Of a stretch of 64,000 nucleotides of DNA, positions 3,807-63,953 are shown piece by piece (positions within the stretch are counted from its first letter, which is position 1; each line of letters starts with the position of its first letter). Source of the DNA: a virus; the IMG/VR virus record IMGVR_UViG_3300023179_008562, positions 1 to 64,000 of that record, one strand, 5' to 3'. Under the pieces are notes generated by a model, which was not told the DNA's origin, did not search any database, and saw nothing but the letters and a program-made list of their open reading frames with translations. The position numbers and the translations under genes are program-made.

Positions 3807-6533
3807 TTAGTAAGAAGCCGTCAATATATCTCGACTGACTCTGGTGCCACGCTGCTGTTCATTGATCATGCTTCGGGTCAGGTTGGTCTGCTCTTGCATG
3901 GCATCCAGTTGTCGTTGCATCAGACCCACCATTTCTTTATTACTGTCGGCAATGTCACTGGCTGCTTGTTCTGGAGTAACAGTTTGTCCAGCTGCTCGAT
4001 CTTGCTTGAACTGTTCCACTAGGTCCTGAATTTGTTTGGAAAAATCTTCCATTTTTAGATTTCTGGTGTCCTGGAAAGAACCCAGAGCATTGACTTTCTC
4101 ATCGCCCAGATCGTATGTGGTACCGTAACCCAGTAATTCCTTCCAGGTTTTGGTATCAGTGATGGTGCCACCACCAGCCTTGTCAAATGCTCCCAATTTT
4201 TCTGCCATGGCTGCAACAATACGCAGGTCTGTTCTCATGGGACCAATGTTGAGTCCGCTGAATTCTTTCAATCCCGGCAGCAATTCCTTTTCCATGCTCA
4301 TGGCCAACTGAACTGATATGGGTTTACTATCTGACATCGAATTTTTTATACTTGCCGATATTTGATCAGCAATGGCTGCGACGCCAGAAAGATCTTTTTC
4401 TCCGCGGTCTTGGGCGTTGATATTAACTGGAATTGTTTTACCATCTGGTAACGGAACCACTGCTTCAGTTCCATGTAATGTGGCAGCAAATCCAGTGGTT
4501 GGGCCTCTGGCTATACCACCATCTGCGAACATGGGCGAGGACTGTTCATCCCTCCAGCGTTTGTATTCTTCTTCTTTTTTTGCAAATTCTTTATCTACTT
4601 TTAGACGTTCTTGATATGCAGCACGCGCTTTATCCTCTGCGGCCGTTAATTGGGCACTCTTCTGACCAGTGGCCTCCTGCCAGGCAGTGGGCTTCTCTTC
4701 AGATCTGATGGACTTTGCCTCCTGAGCGGTCTGTGTCTGCTCTGTCTGCGCTTGTTCAAGTGCTTTTCCGCCGACACCAAACCCCAGCTCATTCATCATG
4801 TCCTGGACACCTTTGAGCATTTGGGCGGAAATAGCAGCAAAGTTTTTAATGGCTGGAGTCAAAGTTTCTTCTAGGGCCACTTTTAATTTTTGTGCTTGTT
4901 CTTCAGCCCCAACAACCGAGTTGGTTAGCCCATCAGTGGCCTCTTTTTGTTTTGCAGCAGCTTCCTCTGCTGCTGTGATGCCTTCTGCAGTGAATTTTCC
5001 AATTTGGGGCAGCTCGCGACCCATTGCCTCTGACAACTCACCCGCCGCACCGCCGACGCCAGCTAGACCGGCCTTGCCTATGGTGGCGCCCAACGCCAGA
5101 AGTTCTCGTTGATTCTGTTCGGCATGCTTCTTTTGATTTTCCAATGTGCGACGGCCATCCAGAACACCTGCTCGGGCGTCGCGTACCTGATCCTGGGTAA
5201 ATTCTGCCACGCTGGGCATTTGCGCAGCCATGATAGCACCAGTTTTGTTTATGATAGTCCCATACACCATCATGTCAACAAAGTTCTTTCTCTGTTGATC
5301 AGTCATGTTCTGCATGGCCGATTCAATACCAGCGCGTTGTTCGGGGCCCATTTTGGCAAGTTCAGCCTGGAACGCAATATTAGCCGAGGCTTGTCTGGCC
5401 TCGTCCTGACGTTTTTTGGCATCTTCGCCGGTGATGGCAGCAATGACTCTTAGATTTTCAGCATATTTTTGCGTCTGTTCAGCAACCTGCGCTTCTGTGG
5501 CTCTAAGTGGACCAGCTGCACTGCCACGCATGGCCTGCATGACATCAGCCACCAATGCGCCTTGTTCTTCAAAGCCATATCCCAATTTCAATAGAGATTG
5601 CTGCATTTTGCCGCCACCAGCAGCCAGAACTTTGCCGGTGTATTGGGCTGCTTCAGCCACACTCATGCCCGAGCTGGCCAGTTGTGCACTGGATCCTTTG
5701 ACCACCTGGCTGAATTGTTCCACTGTCAGCCCAGCGGCATGTGCAGAGGCGCGCATGCCGGTCATGCCATCGGCAAACATGGCGCCACTGGCGCTCATGC
5801 TATTGAATGCTTTGACTGTCTTTTCTACTTCTTTGGCCGCAATTTCCACACCAAATTTGGCCAATTTGGCGGCGGTTTCCTGAGCTGCATTGGCCAAAGC
5901 TCCCACACCCGACACCAGTGTACCAATTGCAGCAGTCCAGGGCGTGGGTATGGCTGCAATTGCTGCACCAGCACCGGTGATGCCCTTGGCTAGTGCGCCT
6001 GCTCCAGCACTAGCCACATCAATGGCAGTGTTCATCAGACCAGCAGAGAGTTCAGTGCCGCTGGATCCTGCTTGCAATCCTTTGACAAACTGTCCTGCGC
6101 TAGTAACTATTTGTGTGGAAGCAGTGCGCGTGGCTTCACCCACACCTTTGCCAAATTCCTGTGCTTGCTCTTTAAAATTCTGTTGGTAGGCCTGTCTGGC
6201 CACTTCCTCCTTCTGCTCAAGCAATCGCTTTCTTTCGGTGGCATCGCCGTGTGATTCAATGGATTCTTCGATGGCATCATTGAGTTGCTTAAGAAGCTGT
6301 TGCTGATCTTTGTAACCAGCCTCACCACGTTTGACAGACCTGCCCAGATTAACCATGTCTCGAGCAAAATCATCTGATGATCGTTTTATTCGACCATTAA
6401 ATATTTTCATCTCAGAACTGTTCGCATCAAAGCGATCAGTCAACTGTGTGAGTGCCTGAAATACCGCTTCTGCTACCTGGTGAGCGCCTTCTTCATCCAT
6501 GGGTGTTTTACTTTCTTGGGTTTTTAACACCAT
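3807..6533 (-). CDS. Tape-measure-like protein (true start may be ATG at 6500)
   Basis: 908 aa, Ala/Gln/Gly-rich and helical; FADGGIARGP...LHGTEAVVPL motif common in tape measure C-termini; next to the chaperone-like gene. Confidence 0.7.
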   Translation of the reverse strand: MVLKTQESKTPMDEEGAHQVAEAVFQALTQLTDRFDANSSEMKIFNGRIKRSSDDFARDMVNLGRSVKRGEAGYKDQQQLLKQLNDAIEESIESHGDATERKRLLEQKEEVARQAYQQNFKEQAQEFGKGVGEATRTASTQIVTSAGQFVKGLQAGSSGTELSAGLMNTAIDVASAGAGALAKGITGAGAAIAAIPTPWTAAIGTLVSGVGALANAAQETAAKLAKFGVEIAAKEVEKTVKAFNSMSASGAMFADGMTGMRASAHAAGLTVEQFSQVVKGSSAQLASSGMSVAEAAQYTGKVLAAGGGKMQQSLLKLGYGFEEQGALVADVMQAMRGSAAGPLRATEAQVAEQTQKYAENLRVIAAITGEDAKKRQDEARQASANIAFQAELAKMGPEQRAGIESAMQNMTDQQRKNFVDMMVYGTIINKTGAIMAAQMPSVAEFTQDQVRDARAGVLDGRRTLENQKKHAEQNQRELLALGATIGKAGLAGVGGAAGELSEAMGRELPQIGKFTAEGITAAEEAAAKQKEATDGLTNSVVGAEEQAQKLKVALEETLTPAIKNFAAISAQMLKGVQDMMNELGFGVGGKALEQAQTEQTQTAQEAKSIRSEEKPTAWQEATGQKSAQLTAAEDKARAAYQERLKVDKEFAKKEEEYKRWRDEQSSPMFADGGIARGPTTGFAATLHGTEAVVPLPDGKTIPVNINAQDRGEKDLSGVAAIADQISASIKNSMSDSKPISVQLAMSMEKELLPGLKEFSGLNIGPMRTDLRIVAAMAEKLGAFDKAGGGTITDTKTWKELLGYGTTYDLGDEKVNALGSFQDTRNLKMEDFSKQIQDLVEQFKQDRAAGQTVTPEQAASDIADSNKEMVGLMQRQLDAMQEQTNLTRSMINEQQRGTRVSRDILTASY

Positions 6534-50709: not shown

Positions 50710-51586
50710 TGTTGCAGATTTAGATTGTATTTTTCTCACCTATGACGAGCCAAAAAAAGAAGAATTCTGGATTAAAATTCAGAACATGGTGCCCTGGGCC
50801 CGACGTGTAGATGGAGTCAAAGGGTCGGATGCAGCACACAAAGCCGCTGCTGACGCCAGCGATACTGACCGCTTCGTGCTGATTGACGGTGACAATTTAC
50901 CAGATCCAGAATTTTTTAATCTGCAGTTGAAGCTGGATACAACCAATCGGGACTGTGTGTTTCGCTGGAAAGCCAGAAACATCATTAATGGCCTGCAATA
51001 TGGTAATGGTGGCATGAGCTGCTGGACCAAGGACTTTGTCCGCAACATGAAGACTCATGAAGCCAGTGACGGTTTAGCAGCCAACGATGTGGAATTCTGC
51101 TTCTACCCCAACTATTGGTCCATGAACGATTGTTACAGTGCAACCTATCCCAATGCCACACCTTTCCAGGCCTGGCGAGCTGGGTTCCGCGAGGGTGTCA
51201 AAATGTGTCTGGATCGTGGCGCCCGACCCAATATTGAACAATTCAAAGACCGTATTGTCAGTAGAAATTATGACAATCTCTGCATCTGGCAGACGGTGGG
51301 GGCAGATGTGGAAAATGGCTTCTGGGCCATCTATGGTGCCAGACTGGGCACACAACTAACCATGCTGCAGGACTGGGATTACCGGCAGGTACAGTGGTTT
51401 GATGCATTGTCTGAACTGTGGCAAAATTACAAAGATCACGAGCCTGATCATTGCACTGCTGTGGGCGATGAACTACGTCAGAGATTGGGGTTGAAAATTG
51501 TCGACATGGATCCCGACGCCAGTGCATTTTTCAAGCATCATTACCGGAGCAATTTTCAGAACAAAGGACCAATGATTCGTGAGTAA
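50690..51586 (+). CDS. GT-A fold (GT2-like) glycosyltransferase-like protein
   Basis: IFLTYDEP, VDGVKGSDAAHKAAA, FVLIDGDN (DxD), YGNGG, AWRAGFREGVK. Confidence 0.6.
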   Translation: MSVEIVDVADLDCIFLTYDEPKKEEFWIKIQNMVPWARRVDGVKGSDAAHKAAADASDTDRFVLIDGDNLPDPEFFNLQLKLDTTNRDCVFRWKARNIINGLQYGNGGMSCWTKDFVRNMKTHEASDGLAANDVEFCFYPNYWSMNDCYSATYPNATPFQAWRAGFREGVKMCLDRGARPNIEQFKDRIVSRNYDNLCIWQTVGADVENGFWAIYGARLGTQLTMLQDWDYRQVQWFDALSELWQNYKDHEPDHCTAVGDELRQRLGLKIVDMDPDASAFFKHHYRSNFQNKGPMIRE

Positions 51587-52970
51587 GAGCAAGTTCATGG
51601 GTACTGCTGAGGAAATGCGTGAAAAATTAGGTCATGCACTGTGCCTGGCCAAATGGCAGCAGGTTAGTTTACATTTGCCCACTGGGTTAACCAATAGTTG
51701 CTATCATCCTCCCTTGCATGAAATTGATGCTGCACCACTGACGTTTAATCCCGGTGCACTGCACAATACTGCACACAAGAAAGCGCAACGTAAGTTGATG
51801 CTAGAGCAGCAACGTCCGTCGGAGTGTGCCTATTGCTGGTCAGCTGAAGACAACGGCCAACTTAGTGACAGGCATTATCGCAGTGGCGAACCTTGGGCAG
51901 CAGAACACTATGAAGAAATAGCCCATGGCTCTTGGGATCAGGATGCCACACCCAGTTATGTGGAAGTTAACTTTAGTCATGGCTGCAACCTAGCTTGTAG
52001 TTATTGTAGCCCACAGTTCAGTACCGAGTGGGGCAAAGAAATTGATCGCTGGGGGGCCTATCCCACCACCACACCGCACAATGACCCCATACACTTTCAG
52101 GGACGCCGCAAACCCATTCCGGTTCGTGAAGAAAATCCCTATGTGGACGCCTTCTGGCGCTGGTGGCCAGAATTGTATCCCCACCTCAAGCATTTTCGCA
52201 TGACTGGTGGTGAGCCACTCATGGACAAAAACACTCACCGAGTGTTTGATTACATCCTGGCCCTGCCCAAAAGCGATTTGCATGTGGACGTCACCAGCAA
52301 TTTTAGTGTGGATGATGCACTGTTTGAAAAATACATGCACAAGGTTGAGCAACTGTGTCAGGGCACAAAAATTGAACACTTCATGCAGTATGTGAGTTTG
52401 GATTCGGGTATTAAAGAGCAGAGTGAGTACATACGCGGTGGGCTCAATCTAGACAAGTGTCTGCATAATACTGAAGAATTTCTAACCAGAGTGCCCTATC
52501 GTAACAGTCTGACTTATATCATTACCATGAGCAACCTCAATATTCTAGGTCTGCGAAAGTTATTGGAAATCATTCTGGAACAACGTAAAAAACACAGTCT
52601 GACTTATCAGCGTGTCTGGTTTGATACTCCCCTGCTGCGACAGCCCACCTGGCAGAGTCTGCAAATTTTGCCAGCTAGTTATGTTAGAATATTAGAAGAT
52701 GTTGCTGATTGGATGGAGTCCCATCAACTACCCGAAGGTGTTGATAGATTTGATGGATTCAAAGATTATGAAGTTCAACGCATGCGCAGAAATATTGCCT
52801 GGATGAAAAATGGGCGGGATCTAGATCCTGAATATATACAACAACAACGTGCAGATTTTTATAGATTTTTTAACGAATACGACAAGCGTCGAGGATTTAG
52901 TTTTATTAGCAGCTTCCCCACAATGAAGGAATTCTGGCAAGAGTGCCGATATTATGCCGAAAATACATAA
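51579..52970 (+). CDS. Radical SAM protein with N-terminal twitch-like Fe-S domain
   Basis: N-terminal CLAKW..SCYHP..CAYCW; CNLACSYC; TGGEPL. Confidence 0.9.
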   Translation: MSKSKFMGTAEEMREKLGHALCLAKWQQVSLHLPTGLTNSCYHPPLHEIDAAPLTFNPGALHNTAHKKAQRKLMLEQQRPSECAYCWSAEDNGQLSDRHYRSGEPWAAEHYEEIAHGSWDQDATPSYVEVNFSHGCNLACSYCSPQFSTEWGKEIDRWGAYPTTTPHNDPIHFQGRRKPIPVREENPYVDAFWRWWPELYPHLKHFRMTGGEPLMDKNTHRVFDYILALPKSDLHVDVTSNFSVDDALFEKYMHKVEQLCQGTKIEHFMQYVSLDSGIKEQSEYIRGGLNLDKCLHNTEEFLTRVPYRNSLTYIITMSNLNILGLRKLLEIILEQRKKHSLTYQRVWFDTPLLRQPTWQSLQILPASYVRILEDVADWMESHQLPEGVDRFDGFKDYEVQRMRRNIAWMKNGRDLDPEYIQQQRADFYRFFNEYDKRRGFSFISSFPTMKEFWQECRYYAENT

Positions 52971-54306
52971 CGAAACAGATTTAGAATATAGACGTAGAGT
53001 AATCGACATCAAGTCTGAAAGTTTCTGTGCCGCCAAATGGTACAATGCCACTATCTGGCTGGGGTCGGGTATGACCACTAGTTGTCATCACCCATTACCA
53101 CATAAAGTTTCAGTCCAAGAGGTAGAGGCCAACCCCAGAGCTCTGCATAATACGCCACGCAAAAAGCAAGAACGTCATCAGATGCAACAGGGAGAAAGAC
53201 CTACCGGCTGTGAGTATTGCTGGAAAATTGAAGACATGGGCGTGGATGCCATAAGCGATAGAGTATATAAAACTGTAATTTATAAAGACGAGGACCTGGA
53301 TCTTGCATACAACACTGATTGGAATTCGGACATTAATCTTAAAACTTTGGAAATCGCATTTGATAGAACTTGCCAGTTGGCCTGCAGCTATTGTAATCCT
53401 GCTTTCAGCACTAGCTGGGTACGCGATATTCACCGAAATGGAGCATACATCAATCTGGTCAGCGATGGTCGTAACCATTTCACTCATGAGCATGATAGTG
53501 CTCAACTTTATAAACTCGGTGAAACTAATCCGTATGTGGAAGCATTCTTCAAATGGTGGGAAACCGACCTCCACCAGACCCTGACTGAACTCAGAATCAC
53601 CGGCGGTGAACCGCTCATGAGCGGGTATACAAAACGTCTGTTGGATTGGTTCAAGAATAATCGTGGAGCTAGTACGACCAGACTGGCCATTAATAGCAAC
53701 CTGTGCTTTGACCAATCAGTGCTGGAAGAATTACTAGACAGTACCCAAGGCATCGAACTTGATCTGTATACCAGCAATGAAAGTCTGGGCGCTCATGCAG
53801 AATACATTCGCGATGGGCTTGAATGGCAGCAGTGGACGGATAACATGTGGTTCTTGATGCGCAGCGGTCGGTTGCGTAGCTTGCATGTCATGTGCACAAT
53901 TAATGCTCTTTGCCTGGAAAGTTTGCCAGAATTTCTAACCATGCTCATGGAATGGAAAAGTCAATGGGGTCGAAATAACCCCAACTTTACATTAAACATT
54001 CTGCGTTTTCCCAGTTTTCAGAGTCCATTGGTGCTGCCTGATGATATTCGTATGAAACATCGACAGAGACTGGTGGATTGGTTAAATAGATTTAATGATC
54101 ATTGCATGCTTCATGAGCATGAAAAGAATCATGTGCAACGTCTGATTGATTATTTGGATATTGTTAAAACTCCACACAGTGATGCGTTTGACTTGCCAGC
54201 ATTACATAACGATTTCAAACAGTTTCATCAACAATATGATCAGCGTCGTGACAAGGATTTTAAAACAACATTCCCACAACTGGCCGATTGGTACACAACA
54301 CTATGA
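52954..54306 (+). CDS. Radical SAM protein with N-terminal twitch-like domain
   Basis: FCAAKW..SCHHP..CEYCW; CQLACSYC; TGGEPL. Confidence 0.9.
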   Translation: MPKIHNETDLEYRRRVIDIKSESFCAAKWYNATIWLGSGMTTSCHHPLPHKVSVQEVEANPRALHNTPRKKQERHQMQQGERPTGCEYCWKIEDMGVDAISDRVYKTVIYKDEDLDLAYNTDWNSDINLKTLEIAFDRTCQLACSYCNPAFSTSWVRDIHRNGAYINLVSDGRNHFTHEHDSAQLYKLGETNPYVEAFFKWWETDLHQTLTELRITGGEPLMSGYTKRLLDWFKNNRGASTTRLAINSNLCFDQSVLEELLDSTQGIELDLYTSNESLGAHAEYIRDGLEWQQWTDNMWFLMRSGRLRSLHVMCTINALCLESLPEFLTMLMEWKSQWGRNNPNFTLNILRFPSFQSPLVLPDDIRMKHRQRLVDWLNRFNDHCMLHEHEKNHVQRLIDYLDIVKTPHSDAFDLPALHNDFKQFHQQYDQRRDKDFKTTFPQLADWYTTL

Positions 54307-55646
54307 GCGATTCAAACGATATTAAAAGTTTTTATAATAAAGGCTACAGTTACACGGCCAGAGCACCATATTTTGCTGATCTGGAAAGTTTAACAGAGAG
54401 ACAAAAAGAATTGCTTTTGGAGAGCAAGACATTTTGTATGTTGCCCTGGGTGCACATGCATGCATTTCCTGATGGAAGAGTTTATCCTTGTTGTTTGGCA
54501 GACTACTGGCATCCCCTGGGGGATTTACGTAAAGACGACATGGTGACTGTGTGGAATCAAGATGCCTATAAACAGTTGCGTCAAAACATGCTGACTGAGA
54601 AGCCTAGTAAGGAATGCAACAAATGCTATGAACAAGAGAAAAGTGGATTTTTCAGCATGCGGTATGATGCCAACAGAAATTATGGTCATCATATTGCAGA
54701 AGTAGAACAGACTCTTGAAGATGGTGAGCATCCAGAATTCAATATTAGATACTGGGATGTGAGATTCAGTAATCTCTGCAATTTCCGTTGCAGAACCTGT
54801 GGGCCTATCTTTAGCAGTAATTGGTATAGTGATCACATTAAACTTTATAATAGAAACCCAGATGTTTTGGGTAGGGAAATGACCACAGTGGAGTACGCTG
54901 GCCGCCATGAGATGGATATCTGGGAGCAAATGCAACCACACATCCCGCATTTGGAACAAGTTTATTTTGCTGGTGGCGAACCTTTGATCATGAAAGAGCA
55001 TTACCTGTTACTGGAAAAATTGATCGAGTTGGGCAAGACTGATGTCAGACTCATGTACAATACCAATTTTAGTGAGCTCAGATATAAAAATAAACATGTG
55101 TTTGAGTACTGGAAGCATTTTAAAACTGTTAACGTTGGTGCTAGTCTGGATGCCAGTGGTTCCCGCGCAGAAATCCTACGTAAAGGCACTGATTGGCAGC
55201 AAACGGTGGAGAATCGCGAGCGTATGATGCGTGAAGTCCCACACGCTGATTTTTATATCAGCGCAACTGTTAGTGCCGCTAATGTGTTGCATGTATTGGA
55301 TTTTCACCGTGAATGGACTGAGTTGGGCCTAATAAAAGCTAAAGATTTTAATGTTAACATTTGTCAGAGTCCTGAATGGCACAGAATTGATGTATTACCA
55401 GAACAATTTAAACGAGAAGTGGTTGAGCCAGCATATCGTAAACATCTGGAATGGTTGCGCCCGCAGGACGATTTAAAACGAGCTACAAATGGTTTTGAAA
55501 GTGCCATCAACTTTATGATGGCCAAGGACAACAGCCAACACTGGAATAAGTTTGTTGCGGAGACCGCCAAACTTGATCGAGTCAGAAATGAAGATTTCTG
55601 GCAAGTATTTACTGAATTGAGCTCTTTACCACATGACATTACCTAA
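54303..55646 (+). CDS. Radical SAM protein with N-terminal twitch-like domain
   Basis: FCMLPW..YPCC..CNKCY; CNFRCRTC; AGGEPL; ATGA overlap with the previous stop. Confidence 0.9.
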   Translation: MSDSNDIKSFYNKGYSYTARAPYFADLESLTERQKELLLESKTFCMLPWVHMHAFPDGRVYPCCLADYWHPLGDLRKDDMVTVWNQDAYKQLRQNMLTEKPSKECNKCYEQEKSGFFSMRYDANRNYGHHIAEVEQTLEDGEHPEFNIRYWDVRFSNLCNFRCRTCGPIFSSNWYSDHIKLYNRNPDVLGREMTTVEYAGRHEMDIWEQMQPHIPHLEQVYFAGGEPLIMKEHYLLLEKLIELGKTDVRLMYNTNFSELRYKNKHVFEYWKHFKTVNVGASLDASGSRAEILRKGTDWQQTVENRERMMREVPHADFYISATVSAANVLHVLDFHREWTELGLIKAKDFNVNICQSPEWHRIDVLPEQFKREVVEPAYRKHLEWLRPQDDLKRATNGFESAINFMMAKDNSQHWNKFVAETAKLDRVRNEDFWQVFTELSSLPHDIT

Positions 55647-56832
55647 TAGCATTTGCATATTGCCCTGGATTAGTGTTGAGACCAGCCCTGTTGGAACAGT
55701 GCGACCCTGTTGTTTAGCCAAAGATGAAATAACCAAACCATCGGGCGAAAAATACTTGCTTAAAGAGCATAATCTGGAAGAGATTTATCAGAGCAAGTAC
55801 ATGCAACGTCTCAGACAGGAATTTTTATCAGGAAATAAACCCCCCACTTGCGATCGTTGCTGGGAAGAGGAAGCTGCAGGTCGAACCAGCAAAAGAATCA
55901 ACAGTCGAGTTCGTCTTAAGGAGTATTATGATCAAGTGGATTGGCACAACGTCAATCCTGACCAATTGTGGTTCATTGATCTTAAATTGGGCAATATTTG
56001 CAATCTCAAATGTCGTATTTGCGGCAGCTGGAGCAGCAGCAAGTGGGTCCAGGAAGAAATTGATTATGTGCCAGGTCTTGTCAACAGAAAAGAACATCTG
56101 GCTTATAAGTTTTTGCAGCAGGGCGCTTGGCCCAGAGAAAGTCCTGATTTCTGGGAAAATTTAAAAAGTCTGTTGCCCAACATCAAATATTTTGAGTTTA
56201 CGGGCGGAGAACCTTTTCTAATTCAACAACATTTTGATTTGTTGGAGTATGCTGCAGAACATGGCCACAGTCAGCATATTGATATTCATTACAATACCAA
56301 TGGCACTGTGTTTCCCGACGCTGCTGAATTATGGAACAAGTTCAATCGTGTGGAAATTGCTTTCAGCATAGACAACGTTGGCGAGAGATTCGAGCTGGAA
56401 CGTTATGGTGCTGACTGGTCAGAAGTACAGGAAAATTTAAATAAATTTTCGGCCATGCGCAGCAAGAAAATCACCACGCAACTCTGCACCACCATGAATG
56501 CTCAGAATGTCTATTATTTGCCAGAAATTTGTGATTGGGCCAGTACTCAAGATTTTGACTACATATATTTCAATATGCTGCATGATCCCTGGCACATGAA
56601 TATTGGTCGTATGACTCCTGCAGCACAACAGTTGGTGATTGAACGATTAACCAATCACAAGTTTCACACCAAATATCGTGCAGAGATTGAACGTATTATT
56701 CAGTTTATTCGTAATGGGTCTGGCAGTGATGGTCAGAAATTTCTAACAACAATGAAATTGGCCGACCAATACAGAAAACAAAGTTTTGCTGAAACGCATC
56801 CTGAAATTGCCAAGGCCATGGGGTATGATTGA
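55633..56832 (+). CDS. Radical SAM protein with N-terminal twitch-like domain
   Basis: CILPW..RPCC..CDRCW; CNLKCRIC; TGGEPF; YNTNGT. Confidence 0.9.
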   Translation: MTLPNSICILPWISVETSPVGTVRPCCLAKDEITKPSGEKYLLKEHNLEEIYQSKYMQRLRQEFLSGNKPPTCDRCWEEEAAGRTSKRINSRVRLKEYYDQVDWHNVNPDQLWFIDLKLGNICNLKCRICGSWSSSKWVQEEIDYVPGLVNRKEHLAYKFLQQGAWPRESPDFWENLKSLLPNIKYFEFTGGEPFLIQQHFDLLEYAAEHGHSQHIDIHYNTNGTVFPDAAELWNKFNRVEIAFSIDNVGERFELERYGADWSEVQENLNKFSAMRSKKITTQLCTTMNAQNVYYLPEICDWASTQDFDYIYFNMLHDPWHMNIGRMTPAAQQLVIERLTNHKFHTKYRAEIERIIQFIRNGSGSDGQKFLTTMKLADQYRKQSFAETHPEIAKAMGYD

Positions 56833-57919
56833 TTATTTACCGACTGATGTTTGCGGGCCCTGGAAAGATGTTAACTCAAACAACATCTTTCAAACGGTGT
56901 ATCAACAATTTAAATTGTTACAATGGGGGCAGATTTATTTTGTTTTAAATGTGCAAGACATTACAAGAATTTCCATACCTAAAAATTATAAAAATATATT
57001 AATTAGTTTTCATACTGAATTTTATCATTATGACAAGTTGATACATTTTTTTAATTTACATGCTGACTGTGACTTTTTGTTAATTTGTGATGGTGATGCC
57101 AATGAAAATATATGGCCAGATCATGTAACATATTGTCCCTGGGTCACCTGGCACCAACAATTATCAATGGTTGTTGATCGGTACGGATACAATCAGGAAA
57201 AACGATCCCCAACAAAACGACTGAGTGCATTAAGTCGGCGCAATGATTTTAATCGCGCAGCAATTATTGCATATCTAATGAATGAATATGATCTAACAGA
57301 CTGTATTGTTAGTTGGCATAATATAGACTATGGAATTTCACCCTGGTATTTTGATGCATCTGCCGGTGTGCCTGACAGAATCTGGCGATATCTAAGTAGT
57401 GAAAAATTTAGCCAACTCACCAATCTTTTTGCTGACGGCCCACTTGTGTTGCCCAACTTGCCAATCACCAATGGTGATTGGAGAAAATCTGCGTATTTGG
57501 ATGCAATTTTAAATCTTACCAATGAAGGGGTTTATGGAACAATGTTCAATCAGGATAAATGTTATACTACTCCTTATTTAACAGAAAAAACTTGGAAACC
57601 TCTGATTGCCAGACAACCCTTTTTGCCAATAGGGCAGTTTAATACACTGACGCATCTTTCTAAATTGGGTATGAATTTTGACTATGGATTCAATTTGGAT
57701 TTTGATCAGTGCAAACATGATTTTGATCGAATGATCAAAATATATGAGTTGCTTGAACATATTAAAAATATGGATTTTAATTCTTTGTTGAATGATTCCC
57801 AACCGTCAGCTGATCATAATTTAGAAATTATTATTAACGGCGAATTTTCAAAAAAATGTCAGGAACATAATAATGAAAATTTTGATTTGGTTGACAACTG
57901 GGTCTCAAGACACAGATGA
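56825..57919 (+). CDS. Putative glycosyltransferase-like protein (GT10-like TEK motif)
   Basis: YLTEKTWKPLIARQPFLPIG motif resembles the GT10 donor-binding EK motif; AT-rich; ATG at 56825. Confidence 0.45.
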   Translation: MIDYLPTDVCGPWKDVNSNNIFQTVYQQFKLLQWGQIYFVLNVQDITRISIPKNYKNILISFHTEFYHYDKLIHFFNLHADCDFLLICDGDANENIWPDHVTYCPWVTWHQQLSMVVDRYGYNQEKRSPTKRLSALSRRNDFNRAAIIAYLMNEYDLTDCIVSWHNIDYGISPWYFDASAGVPDRIWRYLSSEKFSQLTNLFADGPLVLPNLPITNGDWRKSAYLDAILNLTNEGVYGTMFNQDKCYTTPYLTEKTWKPLIARQPFLPIGQFNTLTHLSKLGMNFDYGFNLDFDQCKHDFDRMIKIYELLEHIKNMDFNSLLNDSQPSADHNLEIIINGEFSKKCQEHNNENFDLVDNWVSRHR

Positions 57920-59238
57920 AATTAGAGAAATCAGAAATTGCTTTTCACAAAAAGCCACCAACACTTTGTATGGCCCCCTGGGCACACACCTATCTGAGTC
58001 CGCAGACTGAGAGAAGAATGTGCTGTGCTAGTCGTGAGCCGGCACAAAACTTTCAACAGTATATTGATACTCGGGCCGGCACAGGCAAGTACATTCCCAT
58101 CACACTAGAGCAGCATTGGAATAGCGAGCACATGAAGTCGGTGCGCCGGCGTATGATGGCAGGAGAAACATTGCCTGAGTGCGAAGTCTGCAATAATAAG
58201 CTACTAAATACCGACGTATACCGCAGCTATTTTAATCAGTTGTTCGGACATAAGTACAATAGCATATGGGAAACCACAGATGAATCGGGGTATACTACCA
58301 TGCAACCTGTCAGCTGGGATTATCGTTTCAGTAATCTCTGCAACTTCAAATGCCGTACGTGCGGCGACATGTTGAGCAGTGCCTGGGAAACCGAACAACG
58401 GCAGCACAACATGATCAACTGGCATGACTCCAAGAATAATTGGCAGCGTCCAGAAATAAAAAAACAAATCGAATATTTTCAAGAAACACAGATTGAACAA
58501 GAGTTCGCTCAAGCAGTCGAGAACCATCAAGTTGAGGAGGTATATTGGGTAGGCGGTGAGCCTCTGATGTACGAACAGCACTGGCGTTATATGCGGCGCA
58601 TTGTTGAACTGGGAGATGGTAAAAATGTTTACGCTAGATACAACACAAACCTTAGTCGCATCAATTATCGCGGCATCAATCTCTATAGCGATATTTTGGC
58701 TGGGCTACGCGACTGGCAAATATGTGCAAGCATCGATGGTACGGGCCGAGTTGGAGAGTATATACGAACAGGTCTCGATTATGCAACGTGGCTTGAAAAC
58801 TTTAAGGCTGGTGTTCGAGTCGCTACGCATCGTCGTCAGATGAGAATTGATTTCACACTTACCCTGCCGGGTATGTTTGAAATAGCGAATATTCAAAAGT
58901 TAGCAGATGAACTGGGGGTGGATATCCTGGCCAAAGTGGTGTTTAGCTTCGGTCCGGATATCCTGCTTTCACCTCTGGCTTTACCTCGAGACATATTACA
59001 TACTTGGATAGATGAATTGCTACCAGAGACTCAGGGAGCATTGCGGGATATATTGGTACAACTCAAAACTCGACCCACCTTCGCCGAGCAATGGCCCAAC
59101 GAGTATACTGCGGGATTATGCGAAGGTAAAGCCAGAATTTTAAAATTGGAATCTATTCGCAAGGATACATATACATTAGCAGATATTCTTAGTCAGAGGC
59201 CCCAAGTTCATGAGTGGTACAAATCCATCGACAGTTAA
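57916..59238 (+). CDS. Radical SAM protein with N-terminal twitch-like domain
   Basis: LCMAPW..RMCC..CEVC; CNFKCRTC; VGGEPL; YNTNLS. Confidence 0.9.
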   Translation: MKLEKSEIAFHKKPPTLCMAPWAHTYLSPQTERRMCCASREPAQNFQQYIDTRAGTGKYIPITLEQHWNSEHMKSVRRRMMAGETLPECEVCNNKLLNTDVYRSYFNQLFGHKYNSIWETTDESGYTTMQPVSWDYRFSNLCNFKCRTCGDMLSSAWETEQRQHNMINWHDSKNNWQRPEIKKQIEYFQETQIEQEFAQAVENHQVEEVYWVGGEPLMYEQHWRYMRRIVELGDGKNVYARYNTNLSRINYRGINLYSDILAGLRDWQICASIDGTGRVGEYIRTGLDYATWLENFKAGVRVATHRRQMRIDFTLTLPGMFEIANIQKLADELGVDILAKVVFSFGPDILLSPLALPRDILHTWIDELLPETQGALRDILVQLKTRPTFAEQWPNEYTAGLCEGKARILKLESIRKDTYTLADILSQRPQVHEWYKSIDS

Positions 59239-60361
59239 AGTCACTTTAAGAAATCCCGTCAATAAGTCAGAGACCTGGGATTACTGGATCATTCCAGACC
59301 ACCATCAACTGGCCCAGGATTGGGTAGTTGCACTTAGAGAATTGTTAAAGTCTGGCAGACCATTGGAAAAAAATTATTGTTTTATGGGATTTCCAGACAC
59401 TGCTAGAAATTTAGAATATTTGTGTAACGAGCTCAATCGACACATTAAAACCATCAATCTTTTTAATCGAACAAAGGTCTGGCAAAATGCAGGGTTAGAA
59501 TCATATGTCATTGAGGATTACTTTACTCCTGATGTTGTGAGATTTGGTAGTGACTATTCCGTTGGCTGGGACGATGAAAACCTGGGGCTCAGTGTCAAAC
59601 ACGAAGTAATGAACCGTCTGCATAATCATTTTGAAGTATTGCAGGGAGTTGCCTGGGACCTCAGCAGCTATTATAAATTAGCGGATTATGATACCAAATA
59701 CGCCATCAGGCAATTAAACAATATTTGTCATGAAATTGAAACTCTGATTCTGAGTCAGCGTAAACGGGCAGTTTTACCAGACTGGGTGCGCCCCAGTCAG
59801 ATTACCACATTCCTGCAAGCCCAACGATATGAATTAACGCCCGAGCACAGACAGTTATTTTTGACCAATGGTTATGATCGAGAATTTGGTAGAGTCTACA
59901 TGCATTGGACACAGATTGGAAAAACTCTGTTTGAAGTCTTTCGTGACGAACATGCTCCCAGACTGACTGACACAATTTGTGAAGCCATCACTGAGCTCAA
60001 ATACTACAGTGGCGAATTTGACATTGAGTGGGGCAATAATGTCACCTATGGTCGGGGATTCAAATGGCACGATCAGGAACAGGATCAGTTCCGCCAATGG
60101 TTGATAGATAACGGTCGTGACCCTGGGGATACCAATCTGAGTCTGGGATATTTGCCTATTGGGCAAGTTGATCTAATTAAAAGTTTTAATACCCAAAACC
60201 CGATTAAAATCAGAGAAATTTTGGGGAAGTATTTGGACATATATCAGATACAAATTGACGATGTCATTGGGGTCTATGATAATTGTTGGTCGGATGATGA
60301 CCACCAACAGCAGCAAATTAATGCAATGATGGCTGGTTATGATTTTAGTAGCCGGGGGTGA
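59210..60361 (+). CDS. Hypothetical protein (383 aa)
   Basis: Long ORF coupled to both neighbours; conserved-looking LHNHFE, LNNICHEIE, HWTQIGK motifs; no family recognised. Confidence 0.7.
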   Translation: MSGTNPSTVKVTLRNPVNKSETWDYWIIPDHHQLAQDWVVALRELLKSGRPLEKNYCFMGFPDTARNLEYLCNELNRHIKTINLFNRTKVWQNAGLESYVIEDYFTPDVVRFGSDYSVGWDDENLGLSVKHEVMNRLHNHFEVLQGVAWDLSSYYKLADYDTKYAIRQLNNICHEIETLILSQRKRAVLPDWVRPSQITTFLQAQRYELTPEHRQLFLTNGYDREFGRVYMHWTQIGKTLFEVFRDEHAPRLTDTICEAITELKYYSGEFDIEWGNNVTYGRGFKWHDQEQDQFRQWLIDNGRDPGDTNLSLGYLPIGQVDLIKSFNTQNPIKIREILGKYLDIYQIQIDDVIGVYDNCWSDDDHQQQQINAMMAGYDFSSRG

Positions 60362-61160
60362 CAGCCTAATTTTTGGGTCGGAGTTATCTGATCAGATTAA
60401 TCAAACACCTAGTGAAAAGACGTTTTCTGCTCAACTAGCTAGACTTGCTGGTCTGGAATATGTATCAACTGCCTTTCCTGGTAATGCTAACTCGGCTATT
60501 TCCAGAACAACTCTAAGAAAATGTCAGGACCTACAACGTCAGGGAAAGAAATTTGCTGTACTAATAATGTGGAGTTTTGTTTCCAGATTTGAATTTAGAT
60601 TTAATTATCAGACACATCAACGAAATAGTCCCTGGTATAGCATAAATCCCTGGACCATTGAATCAGACTTAAAGAAAATTTCTGACAATTATTTTACTCC
60701 CAATTCTGATATTGAACAACGACAACTCAACAATATATTAACTGCCAGAACCACTGGAGTCGCAGATTTTGCATCAGTATTTTACAAACATGTAGGCAAC
60801 AGTGAATATTATGAAATGTATTCCAGTTTTAGAGAATTTATTTTCATGCAAGATTATCTAAAATTAAATGGGATCCCCTATATTTTCCTGACAGCTGGTA
60901 ATACATTTTATCAACATGAAAATTATATTAGGAGTCAGGATCACTGGCTATCTGATTTATATCAACTGATTGACTGGGACCAATGGTTTTTCTTTCCTGC
61001 AACATCGGTCAGTTTGACCCAGGAACCCAAAGGATTTTTTCACTGGGCGACAGAAAATAAATACCCAATGGGCACTACACACCCGCTCGAGGCAGCACAC
61101 GATGATGCTGCTAATTTGATTAGGGAAAAATTCAATGAATTGGTTACGAAAAATTTATGA
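60339..61160 (+). CDS. SGNH/GDSL-like hydrolase or acyltransferase
   Basis: GGDSLIFG, PGNANSAI, MWS, C-terminal THPLEAAH. Confidence 0.65.
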   Translation: MILVAGGDSLIFGSELSDQINQTPSEKTFSAQLARLAGLEYVSTAFPGNANSAISRTTLRKCQDLQRQGKKFAVLIMWSFVSRFEFRFNYQTHQRNSPWYSINPWTIESDLKKISDNYFTPNSDIEQRQLNNILTARTTGVADFASVFYKHVGNSEYYEMYSSFREFIFMQDYLKLNGIPYIFLTAGNTFYQHENYIRSQDHWLSDLYQLIDWDQWFFFPATSVSLTQEPKGFFHWATENKYPMGTTHPLEAAHDDAANLIREKFNELVTKNL

Positions 61161-61236
61161 TCGTATTGTTTTAGAAATTACCTACCGTAAGAGACTCCGA
61201 GAGTTGCGTAAACGTGATCCATTCATCTACAAATGA
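61135..61236 (+). CDS. 33-aa peptide MNWLRKIYDRIVLEITYRKRLRELRKRDPFIYK (not in the ORF track)
   Basis: AGGG SD; ATG at 61135; TGA overlaps the next ATG (ATGA); fills the gap between two SGNH-like genes exactly. Confidence 0.72.
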   Translation: MNWLRKIYDRIVLEITYRKRLRELRKRDPFIYK

Positions 61237-61784
61237 TATTGGTCAACGGCTGTAGTTTTACATCGGGCGAAGAATCTCCCATTGCTTGGCCTCGCCTGCT
61301 AGATTTCGATGTAGTCAACATTGCGACTGCTGGTGCCAGCAATGATTATATTTTAAGAAGTACGGTGGATTTTGTGGATAACCATCGAGTGGACAGGGTC
61401 ATTATTGCCTGGACCAGCCCCCATAGAATAGAAATTTCAAATAAACATTTGACTTCAGGTAGTTTTAGAAAATACGGAAAAATTGTTGAAGAAGTTTTCA
61501 AAGATTGGGATGAACAATGGGCATACTTAAAATTTTTAACGCAGATTAAATTACTTGATAACTATCTTAAGGACATACCACATGTCTTTGTCAGTGCATT
61601 TGATATACAGAAATATGCTTCTGGTGTTGGGTTAGATTGTTATTTGGGCTGGCCCAAGCAAGGTTTGGTGGAGTGGATGGGAGATTGTAGTTTGGGCCCT
61701 GGCGGGCACCCATTGGAAGTTGGACATCAATTAATAGCAGATCGAATCAATGAACATATTAGGAATCTCGGCTGGATTTCATGA
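61233..61784 (+). CDS. SGNH/GDSL-like hydrolase or acyltransferase
   Basis: NGCSFTSG, AGASNDYI, AWTS, GGHPLEVGH. Confidence 0.65.
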   Translation: MILVNGCSFTSGEESPIAWPRLLDFDVVNIATAGASNDYILRSTVDFVDNHRVDRVIIAWTSPHRIEISNKHLTSGSFRKYGKIVEEVFKDWDEQWAYLKFLTQIKLLDNYLKDIPHVFVSAFDIQKYASGVGLDCYLGWPKQGLVEWMGDCSLGPGGHPLEVGHQLIADRINEHIRNLGWIS

Positions 61785-63222
61785 CGCAGGTGCTACAGTA
61801 GTTGATGGTAGCACCGGTGACATCCTATTTGCGGCACACAGTGAAAGATACAGCAAGCAAAAAAACGATGCCGACCTCTGTCAGGGCATAGCAGAAGCTG
61901 CGTTGGCACATGGGCCCATTGGCACAATTGCCTATTATGAAACTCCCTGGCTGAAGCAACTGCGACAGCTATACAGCGGTCAGGGCATCGAATGGGATAA
62001 ACTAAATACCAAAAAAATCATAACAGACCAGTTGGGATTCAAAATCTCAGTCCCTGTCAGGACTTATCAGCATCATCTGAGTCATGCCGCTGCGGGATTT
62101 CAGACCAGCCCATTCGATCGGGCCACCGTGGTGGTGATTGATGCCATCGGTGAATGGGACACCATAACCATCTGGGCCGCAGAATACGTCAATGGTCAGG
62201 CCCAATATAACAAACTCTGGGGTCAGAAATATCCACACAGTCTGGGGCTGTTTTATTCAGCCATGACTCAACGTGCAGGGTTGCGGCCATTGGATGAAGA
62301 ATACATTCTCATGGGTATGGCAGCTTATGGCACTGCTGATCCTAGCATGCTAGCGGATTTCGTTCAGAATTTGGACACTCTGGAGTTTCGACGGAATCTC
62401 CATGCGGGTGCTGATGATTATCGTCCAGACATGAGTGATTTTGATATCGCGGCCAGTGCCCAGCAGACTCTGGAAACTTGTCTGGCCAGTGTGATGACAC
62501 GAGCCAGGGCATTCGGCTGGAGCACGAATTTGGTCTATATGGGTGGAGTCGCTTTAAATTGTTCAGCAAACGCCAGACTGGGACAATATTTCGACGACAT
62601 CTGGATCATGCCCAACCCTGGTGATTGCGGCAGCAGTCTGGGGGCCGCGGCTCTGGCTTATAGTGGTCGAATAAACTGGCAACATCCCTATCTGGGCACA
62701 GAAATTCCAGGACCATATCCTCTGGCTGGTCTGATGAATGAACTACTGACTCGTCAGATTGTGGGGGTGGCCAGTGGTCGAGCAGAGTTTGGTCCCAGGG
62801 CCCTGGGCAACCGTAGTCTGTTAGCAGATCCACGGGGTCCTGAAATTAAAGACCGAGTTAACGAAATCAAACGCAGACAAAAGTTCAGACCATTTGCCCC
62901 GGTGATTTTACAAGAGCACGCCAACGACTATTTTGAAATGCCAGTGGGCTTTGCCACCAGCCCATATATGCAGGTCATAGCCAAATGTCGGCATCCTGAA
63001 CAATTTCCTGCTATAATACATGTGGACGGCACCAGTCGAGTGCAGACCGTGTCTGAAAATTGTGGTAGCGGCATCAGACAATTGTTGGAATCCTGGTATG
63101 CACAGACTGGCTGTCCCATGTTGTTGAACACCAGTCTGAACATACGCGGAGAACCCATGGTCAACAATCGTGCAGATGCCGACAGGTTTGAACAGTTGTA
63201 TAATGTAAAGGTCATGTCATGA
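61750..63222 (+). CDS. Carbamoyltransferase (NodU/CmcH/TobZ family)
   Basis: GISAGFHDA, ERYS, HHLSHAA, DAIGE, MGMAAYG, GGVALNC, GDCGSSLG, EFGPRALGNRS, FRPFAP, HVDGTSRVQTV, LLNTSLN. Confidence 0.95.
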   Translation: MNILGISAGFHDAGATVVDGSTGDILFAAHSERYSKQKNDADLCQGIAEAALAHGPIGTIAYYETPWLKQLRQLYSGQGIEWDKLNTKKIITDQLGFKISVPVRTYQHHLSHAAAGFQTSPFDRATVVVIDAIGEWDTITIWAAEYVNGQAQYNKLWGQKYPHSLGLFYSAMTQRAGLRPLDEEYILMGMAAYGTADPSMLADFVQNLDTLEFRRNLHAGADDYRPDMSDFDIAASAQQTLETCLASVMTRARAFGWSTNLVYMGGVALNCSANARLGQYFDDIWIMPNPGDCGSSLGAAALAYSGRINWQHPYLGTEIPGPYPLAGLMNELLTRQIVGVASGRAEFGPRALGNRSLLADPRGPEIKDRVNEIKRRQKFRPFAPVILQEHANDYFEMPVGFATSPYMQVIAKCRHPEQFPAIIHVDGTSRVQTVSENCGSGIRQLLESWYAQTGCPMLLNTSLNIRGEPMVNNRADADRFEQLYNVKVMS

Positions 63223-63953
63223 AGAATCTTATTGTTGTTGGTGATAGTTTTTGTGCTAGCCGAAATGTAAACAATGATAACTTAAATCACCCCCCCTGCT
63301 GGCCAAATCTTTTGGCCCAGGAGTTAAAATTAAATTTATTGGGTGAAGGCATTGGTGGTGCTGGATGGTGGTCCACAAGACAATCGTTAAGAAAATTAAC
63401 ACCAGAACAGATCAATAACACTGAATGCATGGTTTTTTGTCATTCAGATGCCAATCGTTTATTAAATCACAACCTAAATCAAAATCATCTAGATAAACAT
63501 GATCCAAATCCTGCTAATGAAGAACATTTAGCAGTAAAGTTATACTACAAATATATTTTAGATATGGAATTTGCAAACTGGGCTCAATAGATGTGGCTTA
63601 GGGAAATTTCAGACATATATGGGCATTTAAAATTGATTCACTTGCATTGTTTTCCTTGGTCAGTAGAAAAATTAACAATTTCTCCCACTGAGGTTTCTGT
63701 TTCACCTGCACTTGCATCAGTATCTCTTAACGAATTTGAACTTGGGTTATTTGACAGCAAAAATACAATTGTTGAGAAATTAAGGCACGACACGAGGCAT
63801 AATCATCTGAGTGAATTTAATAATATTGAATTGGCCAGACAATTGGCTGAGATTATAAGAAATTACTCAGTAAAAAATTCAAGCCTTGATGTTGGTAAAT
63901 TTCAAACCAAATCTATTAAGTGGTTTGACATTGACTTTTGGGACATTAAATAA
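63219..63953 (+). pseudogene. SGNH-like gene interrupted by one in-frame TAG (63588-63590)
   Basis: The 63219-63590 and 63591-63953 ORFs are contiguous and in frame; GDSF motif is in the first half and RHNHLS (His block) in the second. Confidence 0.6.

Follow-up and report, generated by a model that had tools for sequence, protein, structure and literature searches.

A 33-residue phage microprotein with an invariant C-terminal tyrosine, encoded beside NodU/TobZ-type carbamoyltransferases

The DNA analysed here, positions 1 to 64,000 of the IMG/VR record IMGVR_UViG_3300023179_008562 (hereafter the window), belongs to a T4-like phage contig 90.7 kb long and covers its first 64 kb. Near the end of the window, at positions 61135-61236 of the + strand, an unannotated open reading frame (ORF) of 33 codons runs from an ATG to a TGA among genes for SGNH-like proteins and for a carbamoyltransferase (CT). 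Its product, MNWLRKIYDRIVLEITYRKRLRELRKRDPFIYK, is called PEP below. The locus raises the question of whether such a short frame is a gene and, if so, which of its neighbours it works with and what the tyrosine of its tail is for. The initial annotation of the window had proposed a soluble relay, in which a carbamoyl group would pass from CT to the tyrosine of PEP, from there to an SGNH-like transferase and finally to a glycan. Our analysis indicates that PEP is very probably a dedicated partner of CT, and we tentatively extend this to a role of its Tyr32 as a carbamoyl carrier, which we weigh below against other readings.

The 33-codon gene and its family

The sequence shows a Shine-Dalgarno-like AGGGA (61122-61126, + strand), placed 8 nt ahead of the ATG of PEP, and relatives of PEP show GGAG/AGGA-type motifs at the same distance from the start. 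The first 26 nt of PEP overlap, in another frame, the 3' end of the gene for a 273-aa protein (60339-61160), and its stop codon overlaps the ATG of the gene for a 183-aa protein at 61233 (AAATGA). The ribosome-binding site and ATGA coupling described initially were thus both found. The placement given there, between the SGNH genes and the carbamoyltransferase, was right as to the company of genes, but PEP sits between two SGNH-like genes and CT comes after the second.

We compared 78 distinct DNA versions of PEP. The ATG was kept in all of them, and the codon-position entropy was 0.50, 0.32 and 1.07 bits at positions 1, 2 and 3, respectively. Because third codon positions vary far more than first and second positions, PEP is under protein-level selection. 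The invariant Leu21 and Arg27 were each encoded by six synonymous codons and Pro29 by all four; since the search pattern included the C-terminal heptapeptide, the invariance of the latter in this set is partly by construction, unlike the synonymous variation. Among the IMG/VR relatives found via the 183-aa protein, 21 of the 33 positions of PEP were invariant, with flanking proteins only 59-66% identical. The conservation that the initial annotation had called for was therefore borne out at the codon level, and the 33-codon ORF, as observed earlier, is a genuine protein-coding gene.

That the frame might encode no protein and owe its conservation to overlapping neighbours or to an RNA element is an explanation to which we give next to no credence. 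It could draw on the 26-nt overlap with the upstream gene and on the fact that no RNA sequencing run is listed as holding the stretch. However, third-position variation at conserved amino acids spans the 70 nt of PEP outside the overlap, and the family described below recurs in unrelated genomic contexts, with 503 representative clusters. An RNA element was rejected on the grounds of this codon-level selection and of the lack of any Rfam family matching the PEP region. As for the origin of the DNA, the one sequencing run covering nearly the whole stretch comes from a lake-water metagenome, which could be no more than the sample behind the assembly of the contig, and searches of the region against phage records with megablast and blastn gave no matches.

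A scan with the peptide alignment recovered at least 348 IMG/VR viral contigs with a PEP of the window type, and in all 80 of the contigs kept PEP has 33 aa and follows the pattern M.W[IL]...RDPFIYK. A pattern scan for QDPFIYK followed by a stop codon added 78 contigs, whose PEPs have very unlike N-termini (27-47 aa), only the tail and the basic character being common to all. Retrieving loci by such motif patterns biases the C-terminus. A profile search over 1.84 billion representative proteins (E <= 0.001) gave 503 clusters at 50% identity, nearly all of 29-62 aa. No model of Pfam, PHROG or NCBIfam matches PEP, which makes up a very large, uncatalogued family. One protein of the representative library, P0122, is a 75-aa ORF made of two tandem PEP units, one of T4 type and one of podovirus type, each ending in DPFIYK.

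Two members were reached via their CTs and not via the peptide, and both are encoded directly upstream of CT. In the Ralstonia jumbo phage RsoM2USA, an unannotated 36-aa ORF on the complement strand (record positions 125891-126001, or 5026-5136 of our extracted locus L001) occupies the gap between RsoM2USA_201 and RsoM2USA_200; it encodes MIQKLVNWLKSFFVKEKTEAEKIRDQIRKQDPFIYK and ends in ...RKQDPFIYK. In the marine virus AG-345-D19, PEP ends in ...RKSDPYIYEE. In the tblastn comparison with cultured phages, suggested at the outset as a check, RsoM2USA was the only cultured phage in which PEP was found. Further tblastn matches in phages Turkey5 and S-SM1 were rejected as probable chance matches, since they fall within annotated genes or opposite to them.

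PEP can be divided into an N-terminal amphipathic helix, a basic helix and the C-terminal tail DPFIYK. The window PEP has a net charge of +7, and the PEPs computed range from +7 to +8; the N-terminal hydrophobic moment is 0.76 and 0.69-0.76, respectively. As the initial annotation had it, there is no membrane helix: the highest mean Kyte-Doolittle hydropathy over 19 residues is -0.42 in the window PEP and -0.30 in the podovirus type.

The carbamoyltransferase and the optional neighbours

The gene for CT (61750-63222, + strand) encodes a NodU/TobZ-type O-carbamoyltransferase of 490 aa with a Kae1-like N-terminal domain and a YrdC-like C-terminal domain (Pfam Carbam_trans_N, 3.7e-39; Carbam_trans_C, 3.6e-52). 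It matches NovN, GdmN and TobZ in the PDB at 5e-53 to 4e-43, with a weak hypF match in the NCBIfam scan. The predicted linkage of PEP to a carbamoyltransferase proved near-absolute across very different phages. CT was detected in 81 of 85 T4-like PEP loci, two of the four exceptions being cut off by the end of the locus. Among the 78 QDPFIYK-type loci, 74 have CT, directly downstream of PEP in 73 and directly upstream in 1; the four others all end within about 150 nt of PEP. Most QDPFIYK-type loci are T7-like podovirus replication modules encoding a Toprim primase, PEP, CT and a DnaB-like helicase. In many of these IMG/VR contigs (L091-L168), the PEP-CT cassette is set between the primase and the helicase genes.

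The pairing extends to the junctions between the genes. ATGA was found at 103 of 127 distinct PEP 3' ends, and in one locus (L019) the gene for a 383-aa protein, PEP and CT are joined by ATGA overlaps at both junctions. No fusion of CT with PEP was seen in any fetched locus. We also built a tree of 134 non-redundant CTs with FastTree; being midpoint-rooted and having several long branches, it shows clustering and not direction of descent. All 54 PEP-linked phage CTs fell into one clade (support 100), and 54 of the 56 rows of this clade have PEP, the other two being a PEP-less sequence from a metagenome-assembled genome (MAG) and the long-branched phage C48C1. Bacterial CTs and the PEP-less CTs of cyanophages and a pelagiphage fell on the opposite side of the tree. 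In the cultured phages S-SSM7, S-CAM1, P-SSM2 and HTVC008M, whose CTs lie outside the clade, the neighbouring genes are tightly packed and no PEP-like frame was found.

Two loci deserve separate mention. L169, labelled as a Gammaproteobacteria MAG, carries a CT 48% identical to that of the window, which adjoins a nucleotidyltransferase-like gene also present in podovirus loci; L169 probably stems from a phage, a fragment of which was binned with a bacterial genome. In a 289-kb IMG/VR contig (L061/L253), PEP lies between two SGNH-like genes and the sole CT lies about 110 kb away, without a second PEP. Because CT is near-always present while SGNH-like genes are optional and radical SAM genes lineage-specific, as detailed below, CT is the universal partner gene of PEP.

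Both genes flanking PEP in the window encode SGNH-like proteins. The 183-aa protein encoded downstream (61233-61784, + strand) matches Pfam DUF6071 at 30.6 bits. Its AlphaFold2 (AF2) model has a predicted local distance difference test (pLDDT) score of 92 and, compared with Foldseek, retrieves GDSL/SGNH esterases, TesA and PatB with probability 1.0 and E-values from 1.7e-5, which at the level of the model confirms an SGNH fold. In its relatives, S8, H159 and H165 are invariant and N37 near-invariant. The 273-aa protein encoded upstream (+ strand), with GGDS at its N-terminus, is SGNH-like: it reaches 25 bits with DUF6071, just below the cut-off, and its comparison with the A6-derived SGNH profile gave 1.7e-55. 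With an SGNH profile made from T4-like sequences, which may miss divergent members, an SGNH-like gene was detected within the fetched locus in 54 of 86 T4-like and 15 of 78 QDPFIYK-type cases (69/164 overall), leaving 63 of the 78 QDPFIYK-type loci with no SGNH-like ORF. RsoM2USA has three such genes and AG-345-D19 two. Four arrangements were seen: SGNH-PEP-SGNH-CT, SGNH-radical SAM-SGNH-PEP-SGNH-CT, SGNH-SGNH-PEP-CT and PEP-CT-SGNH. SGNH-fold enzymes are thus a recurrent but optional third component, which weakens the initial idea of a relay that includes an SGNH-like transferase. No C-terminal Tyr tail was seen on any of the 120 nearest SGNH relatives; 301 sampled Actinomycetota genomes and the control genomes yielded no DUF6071, and searching with the DUF6071 protein of RsoM2USA returned 3 hits only.

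Downstream of CT, at 63219-63953 of the window, two ORFs of 123 and 120 aa follow, the first starting with MKNLIVVGDSF, which resembles SGNH block I. No match to a Pfam family, or to the SGNH profile at E 1e-3, was obtained for either; the pair may represent a third SGNH gene that is split or degenerate. Past the end of the window (contig positions 63953-65359; 954-2360 of L254), a gene for an APS-kinase-like P-loop kinase (PF01583, 1.7e-11) comes directly after the CT block, together with one for a dCMP deaminase. An APS-kinase-like gene follows CT in about 33 related loci.

Upstream of this block lies an array of five N-terminal-twitch radical SAM paralogues and a 377-aa protein (51579-59238, + strand), the paralogues matching NCBIfam NF033640 (N_Twi_rSAM) at 1e-85 to 1e-119. 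The array is followed by the gene for the 383-aa protein (59210-60361, + strand), which is directly upstream of the PEP/SGNH block in T4-like relatives. The gene order in T4-like loci is radical SAM genes, 383-aa gene, SGNH, PEP, SGNH and CT, either SGNH gene being missing in many loci. The 383-aa gene is present in 84 of 88 loci and in only a handful of the QDPFIYK-type ones; it is not part of the podovirus and RsoM2USA loci. Its protein has 3683 homologue clusters but no family. The AF2 model (pLDDT 90.9) has a helical insert at residues 61-192 and gave no Foldseek match in the PDB; with VIA-align, borderline matches to cyclophilin-fold chains were obtained (Z 7.2-8.5), which are worth noting because PEP has an invariant proline.

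The radical SAM array bears on the alternative put forward in the initial annotation, that PEP is a radical SAM substrate peptide. In such a reading PEP would be a substrate or scaffold of the N-terminal-twitch enzymes, its D-x-x-x-Y tail playing a role like that of PqqA or MftA. The five paralogues upstream in the window would fit, as would the presence of radical SAM genes in 86 of 88 T4-like and related loci and of one orthologue in RsoM2USA, 49% identical to the second window paralogue. However, only about 5 of the 78 QDPFIYK-type loci have a radical SAM match, against 74 with CT, no recognition-element domain was detected, and NF033640 is not a known peptide maturase family. The alternative is contradicted by the lack of a radical SAM gene near most family members, and we consider it very improbable. 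The radical SAM enzymes are lineage-specific neighbours, outside the universal module.

The tail tyrosine and comparable systems

We examined the tail in the 150 clusters listed among the 503. The tyrosine, expected from the start to be invariant, is present in all 150. DPFIY is found in 139; the other tails are DPFVY, DPYIY, DPFMY, VPFIY, GPFIY or have a polar residue at the Ile position. The residue after the tyrosine is far less constrained: it is Lys in 105 clusters and missing in 11, the remainder having E, D, R, H, NH, KH or other endings. In 142 of 147 listed clusters, 0-2 residues follow the tyrosine, and one listed cluster ends in DPFIYKNF. Because 11 of the 150 end at the tyrosine and others carry E, D, R or H, Lys33 is not essential and the tyrosine is the invariant residue.

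These counts bear on the possibility that PEP is itself the end substrate of CT, in the manner of RiPPs (peptides made on the ribosome and modified after translation). Its tail would then be modified to O-carbamoyl-Tyr or to homocitrulline at Lys33, and the product itself might work in infection as, for example, an effector or an inhibitor. There is a precedent: the NodU-like carbamoyltransferase StdF makes homocitrulline from a Lys near the C-terminus of the ribosomal peptide StdA (PMC13174530). As in that system, the enzyme beside PEP is NodU-like and the small ribosomal peptide has a conserved motif near its C-terminus; moreover, a conserved C-terminal 'core' behind a variable N-terminus recalls RiPP precursors, and the minimal two-gene cassette fits. 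In StdA, however, the target is a Lys and the system includes a fused protease and other maturases, whereas in PEP the Lys is dispensable and no protease, exporter, recognition-element or other maturation gene was found among the annotated conserved neighbours. A StdF-like homocitrulline modification is thus argued against because Lys33 is not essential, and Lys33 was rejected as carbamoyl acceptor on this ground. The stop-start overlap of PEP with the next gene suggests an enzyme-like stoichiometry, and the bacterial counterpart described next is membrane-anchored. Overall we regard an end-substrate role as improbable.

The initial annotation had pointed to small SxtK/DUF5989-type proteins that end in PFIYTLF and are encoded beside carbamoyltransferases. 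To our phage set we compared 80 bacterial loci, from many phyla, whose CTs are closest to the phage enzymes (31-36% identity), and scanned them for small frames. In 46 of the 80, a small protein (about 50 aa), with the pattern M.FLKDLW.FLK.RKK.WLLP-(hydrophobic helix)-GSA.APFIYTLF, is encoded within 3 kb of CT, often directly upstream, as the initial annotation had it. All six of these proteins that were tested belong to Pfam DUF5989 (PF19451; 41-94 bits), whose invariant columns are one Pro and, in the tail, P43, F44 and Y46. In the Bacteroidota locus L204 the order is GT2, GT1, SxtJ, DUF5989, CT. Bacterial loci with DUF5989 (L170-L248) often have two tandem CT paralogues, with 120 CT ORFs in 76 loci. 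The saxitoxin literature mentions sxtJ and sxtK, next to sxtI, simply as short ORFs without a known function (PMC2885083); our literature search gave no paper on DUF5989, nor any that connects carbamoyltransferases with a tyrosine microprotein.

The two families resemble each other in several respects. Both are small proteins adjoining a NodU-family CT, usually upstream of it, with an invariant P-F-x-Y at the C-terminus and an N-terminal amphipathic segment containing Trp. The podovirus-type PEP has in addition a second invariant Pro 22 residues before that of the tail, as P21 and P43 of DUF5989, and when N-terminal segments were compared ungapped and anchored on PFIY, register 0 scored best among the 17 registers tried. 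They also differ. The membrane helix of DUF5989 (Kyte-Doolittle 3.18) corresponds to a charged helix of the same length in PEP; PEP ends 0-2 residues after the tyrosine, not in TLF; no SxtJ gene lies beside PEP; and PEP is confined to the phage-specific CT clade. Six PEP sequences searched against Pfam gave no DUF5989 match even at E up to 10, and the homology implied at first could not be demonstrated by hhalign beyond five residues. From these sequence features, a common origin, in which a charged helix of equal length took the place of the membrane helix, is plausible but unproven.

A possible carbamoyl carrier

Two known systems show how a tail of this kind could be used. HypF, a YrdC/Kae1-type enzyme, places a carbamoyl group on the C-terminal Cys of HypE, the product being turned into cyanide later on. 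CT belongs to the same superfamily, and the proposal for PEP shares with HypF-HypE the transfer of carbamoyl, via carbamoyl-AMP, onto the flexible C-terminal tail of a partner. The differences are that the acceptor is a Cys on a 35-kDa ATPase in one case and would be a Tyr on the 33-residue PEP in the other, and that no relation of PEP to hydrogenase maturation was seen. In the second system, the acyl-tyrosine shuttle to which the initial annotation had appealed and which is documented, the Tyr of the FXYXXF motif of DltX and PatA carries an acyl group to the SGNH transferases DltD and PatB (PMC12148441). PEP resembles these proteins in that an F-x-Y with an invariant Tyr lies close to the C-terminus of a microprotein or tail, and in being encoded with SGNH-fold proteins, as on both flanks of PEP in the window, PatB being among the Foldseek matches of the 183-aa protein. 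The DltX-like motif itself is not there, since the tail is FIYK followed by the stop and not FXYXXF. DltX and PatA further involve a membrane microprotein and an MBOAT enzyme, whereas PEP has no membrane helix and is predicted to be soluble and cytoplasmic; the group carried there is acyl, while here it would be carbamoyl, with a soluble ATP-dependent loader and an optional SGNH partner. An acyl-Tyr type of shuttle nevertheless fits PEP because of the invariant nucleophilic C-terminal Tyr, as in DUF5989, and the repeated recruitment of SGNH-fold proteins.

On this basis we tentatively favour PEP as a CT partner whose Tyr32 would act as a carbamoyl carrier, the group being handed on to SGNH proteins where these are encoded. 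PEP has its own ATG and, in most cases, translational coupling to the gene that follows, so it would probably be made in amounts similar to those of the enzyme; because of the pairing with CT and the stop-start overlap, it is better seen as a partner made together with the enzyme than as a precursor made in excess. Its amphipathic and basic helices would probably dock it on CT or on an anionic surface, leaving the tail D-P-F-I-Y as the functional end. CT would form carbamoyl-AMP from carbamoyl phosphate and ATP, then move the carbamoyl to the hydroxyl of Tyr32 to give an aryl carbamate, which the tail would offer to a second active site. The adjacent SGNH-fold DUF6071 proteins are the likely takers: they may receive the group on their conserved Ser and pass it to a final acceptor, probably a glycan in the operon of the window. 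In loci that lack an SGNH gene, CT and PEP would work by themselves. The binding of PEP to CT, the formation of carbamoyl-Tyr, its hand-over and the identity of the acceptor are all steps that we infer. The fuller version, in which PEP is a soluble carrier and either the SGNH-fold DUF6071 enzymes or CT itself unload the Tyr32 carbamate onto a glycan or other acceptor, is a somewhat unlikely reading.

Several points weigh against a carbamoyl carrier. About 60% of the loci have no recognisable SGNH gene within 5 kb, and a CT of the phage clade occurs in L169 without PEP nearby. The tail of PEP, FIY plus 0-2 residues, has no counterpart of the XXF half of FXYXXF, and the ORFs from 44.5 to 68.8 kb scanned against Pfam included no MBOAT- or SxtJ-like membrane partner. 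The hhalign alignment with DUF5989 covers five columns only, DPFIY with APFIY, with a probability of 33-38%. Cytoplasmic carbamoyltransferases such as TobZ and NodU carbamoylate their acceptors directly, and a carrier would have no obvious purpose within one compartment. Furthermore, carbamoyl-serine enzymes usually turn over slowly. Finally, if the tail were a purely structural plug, its Tyr would be expected to be invariant just as well.

This last point leads to the main competing explanation, in which PEP is a non-covalent subunit that never carries carbamoyl. Its PFIY tail would plug a hydrophobic pocket of CT and so stabilise, activate or localise the enzyme; in a variant, the amphipathic and basic helices could bring CT to the inner face of the membrane, to DNA or to an anionic glycan. 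The near-universal pairing of PEP with CT and the translational coupling of their genes would fit a subunit, and the positive charge and N-terminal hydrophobic moment given above would suit a localising role, as would the membrane-anchor character of the DUF5989 counterpart. The two-gene cassette of podoviruses stands alone, with no second enzyme to take the group. What a mere subunit leaves unexplained is a nucleophilic Tyr near the C-terminus that is never substituted, even by Phe, in either the PEP family or DUF5989, and the repeated recruitment of SGNH-fold proteins. We consider a purely non-covalent role somewhat unlikely.

PEP as a CT partner thus adds to phage biology a family of tiny proteins, outside the libraries searched and comprising hundreds of clusters, found in aquatic myoviruses, jumbo phages and podoviruses and linked there to one branch of carbamoyltransferases. 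Should the carrier role prove true, a Tyr-borne carbamoyl would be a new carrier chemistry, and the acyl-Tyr shuttle principle of DltX and PatA would extend to carbamoyl chemistry, to the cytoplasm and to a loader independent of MBOAT. By extension, a function for SxtK/DUF5989, including the protein of the saxitoxin cluster, would become directly testable, and the role of the widespread 'Nol-like' carbamoyltransferases of phages would be easier to explain. Even if PEP is only a subunit, it should be included whenever CTs of the phage clade are expressed or assayed.

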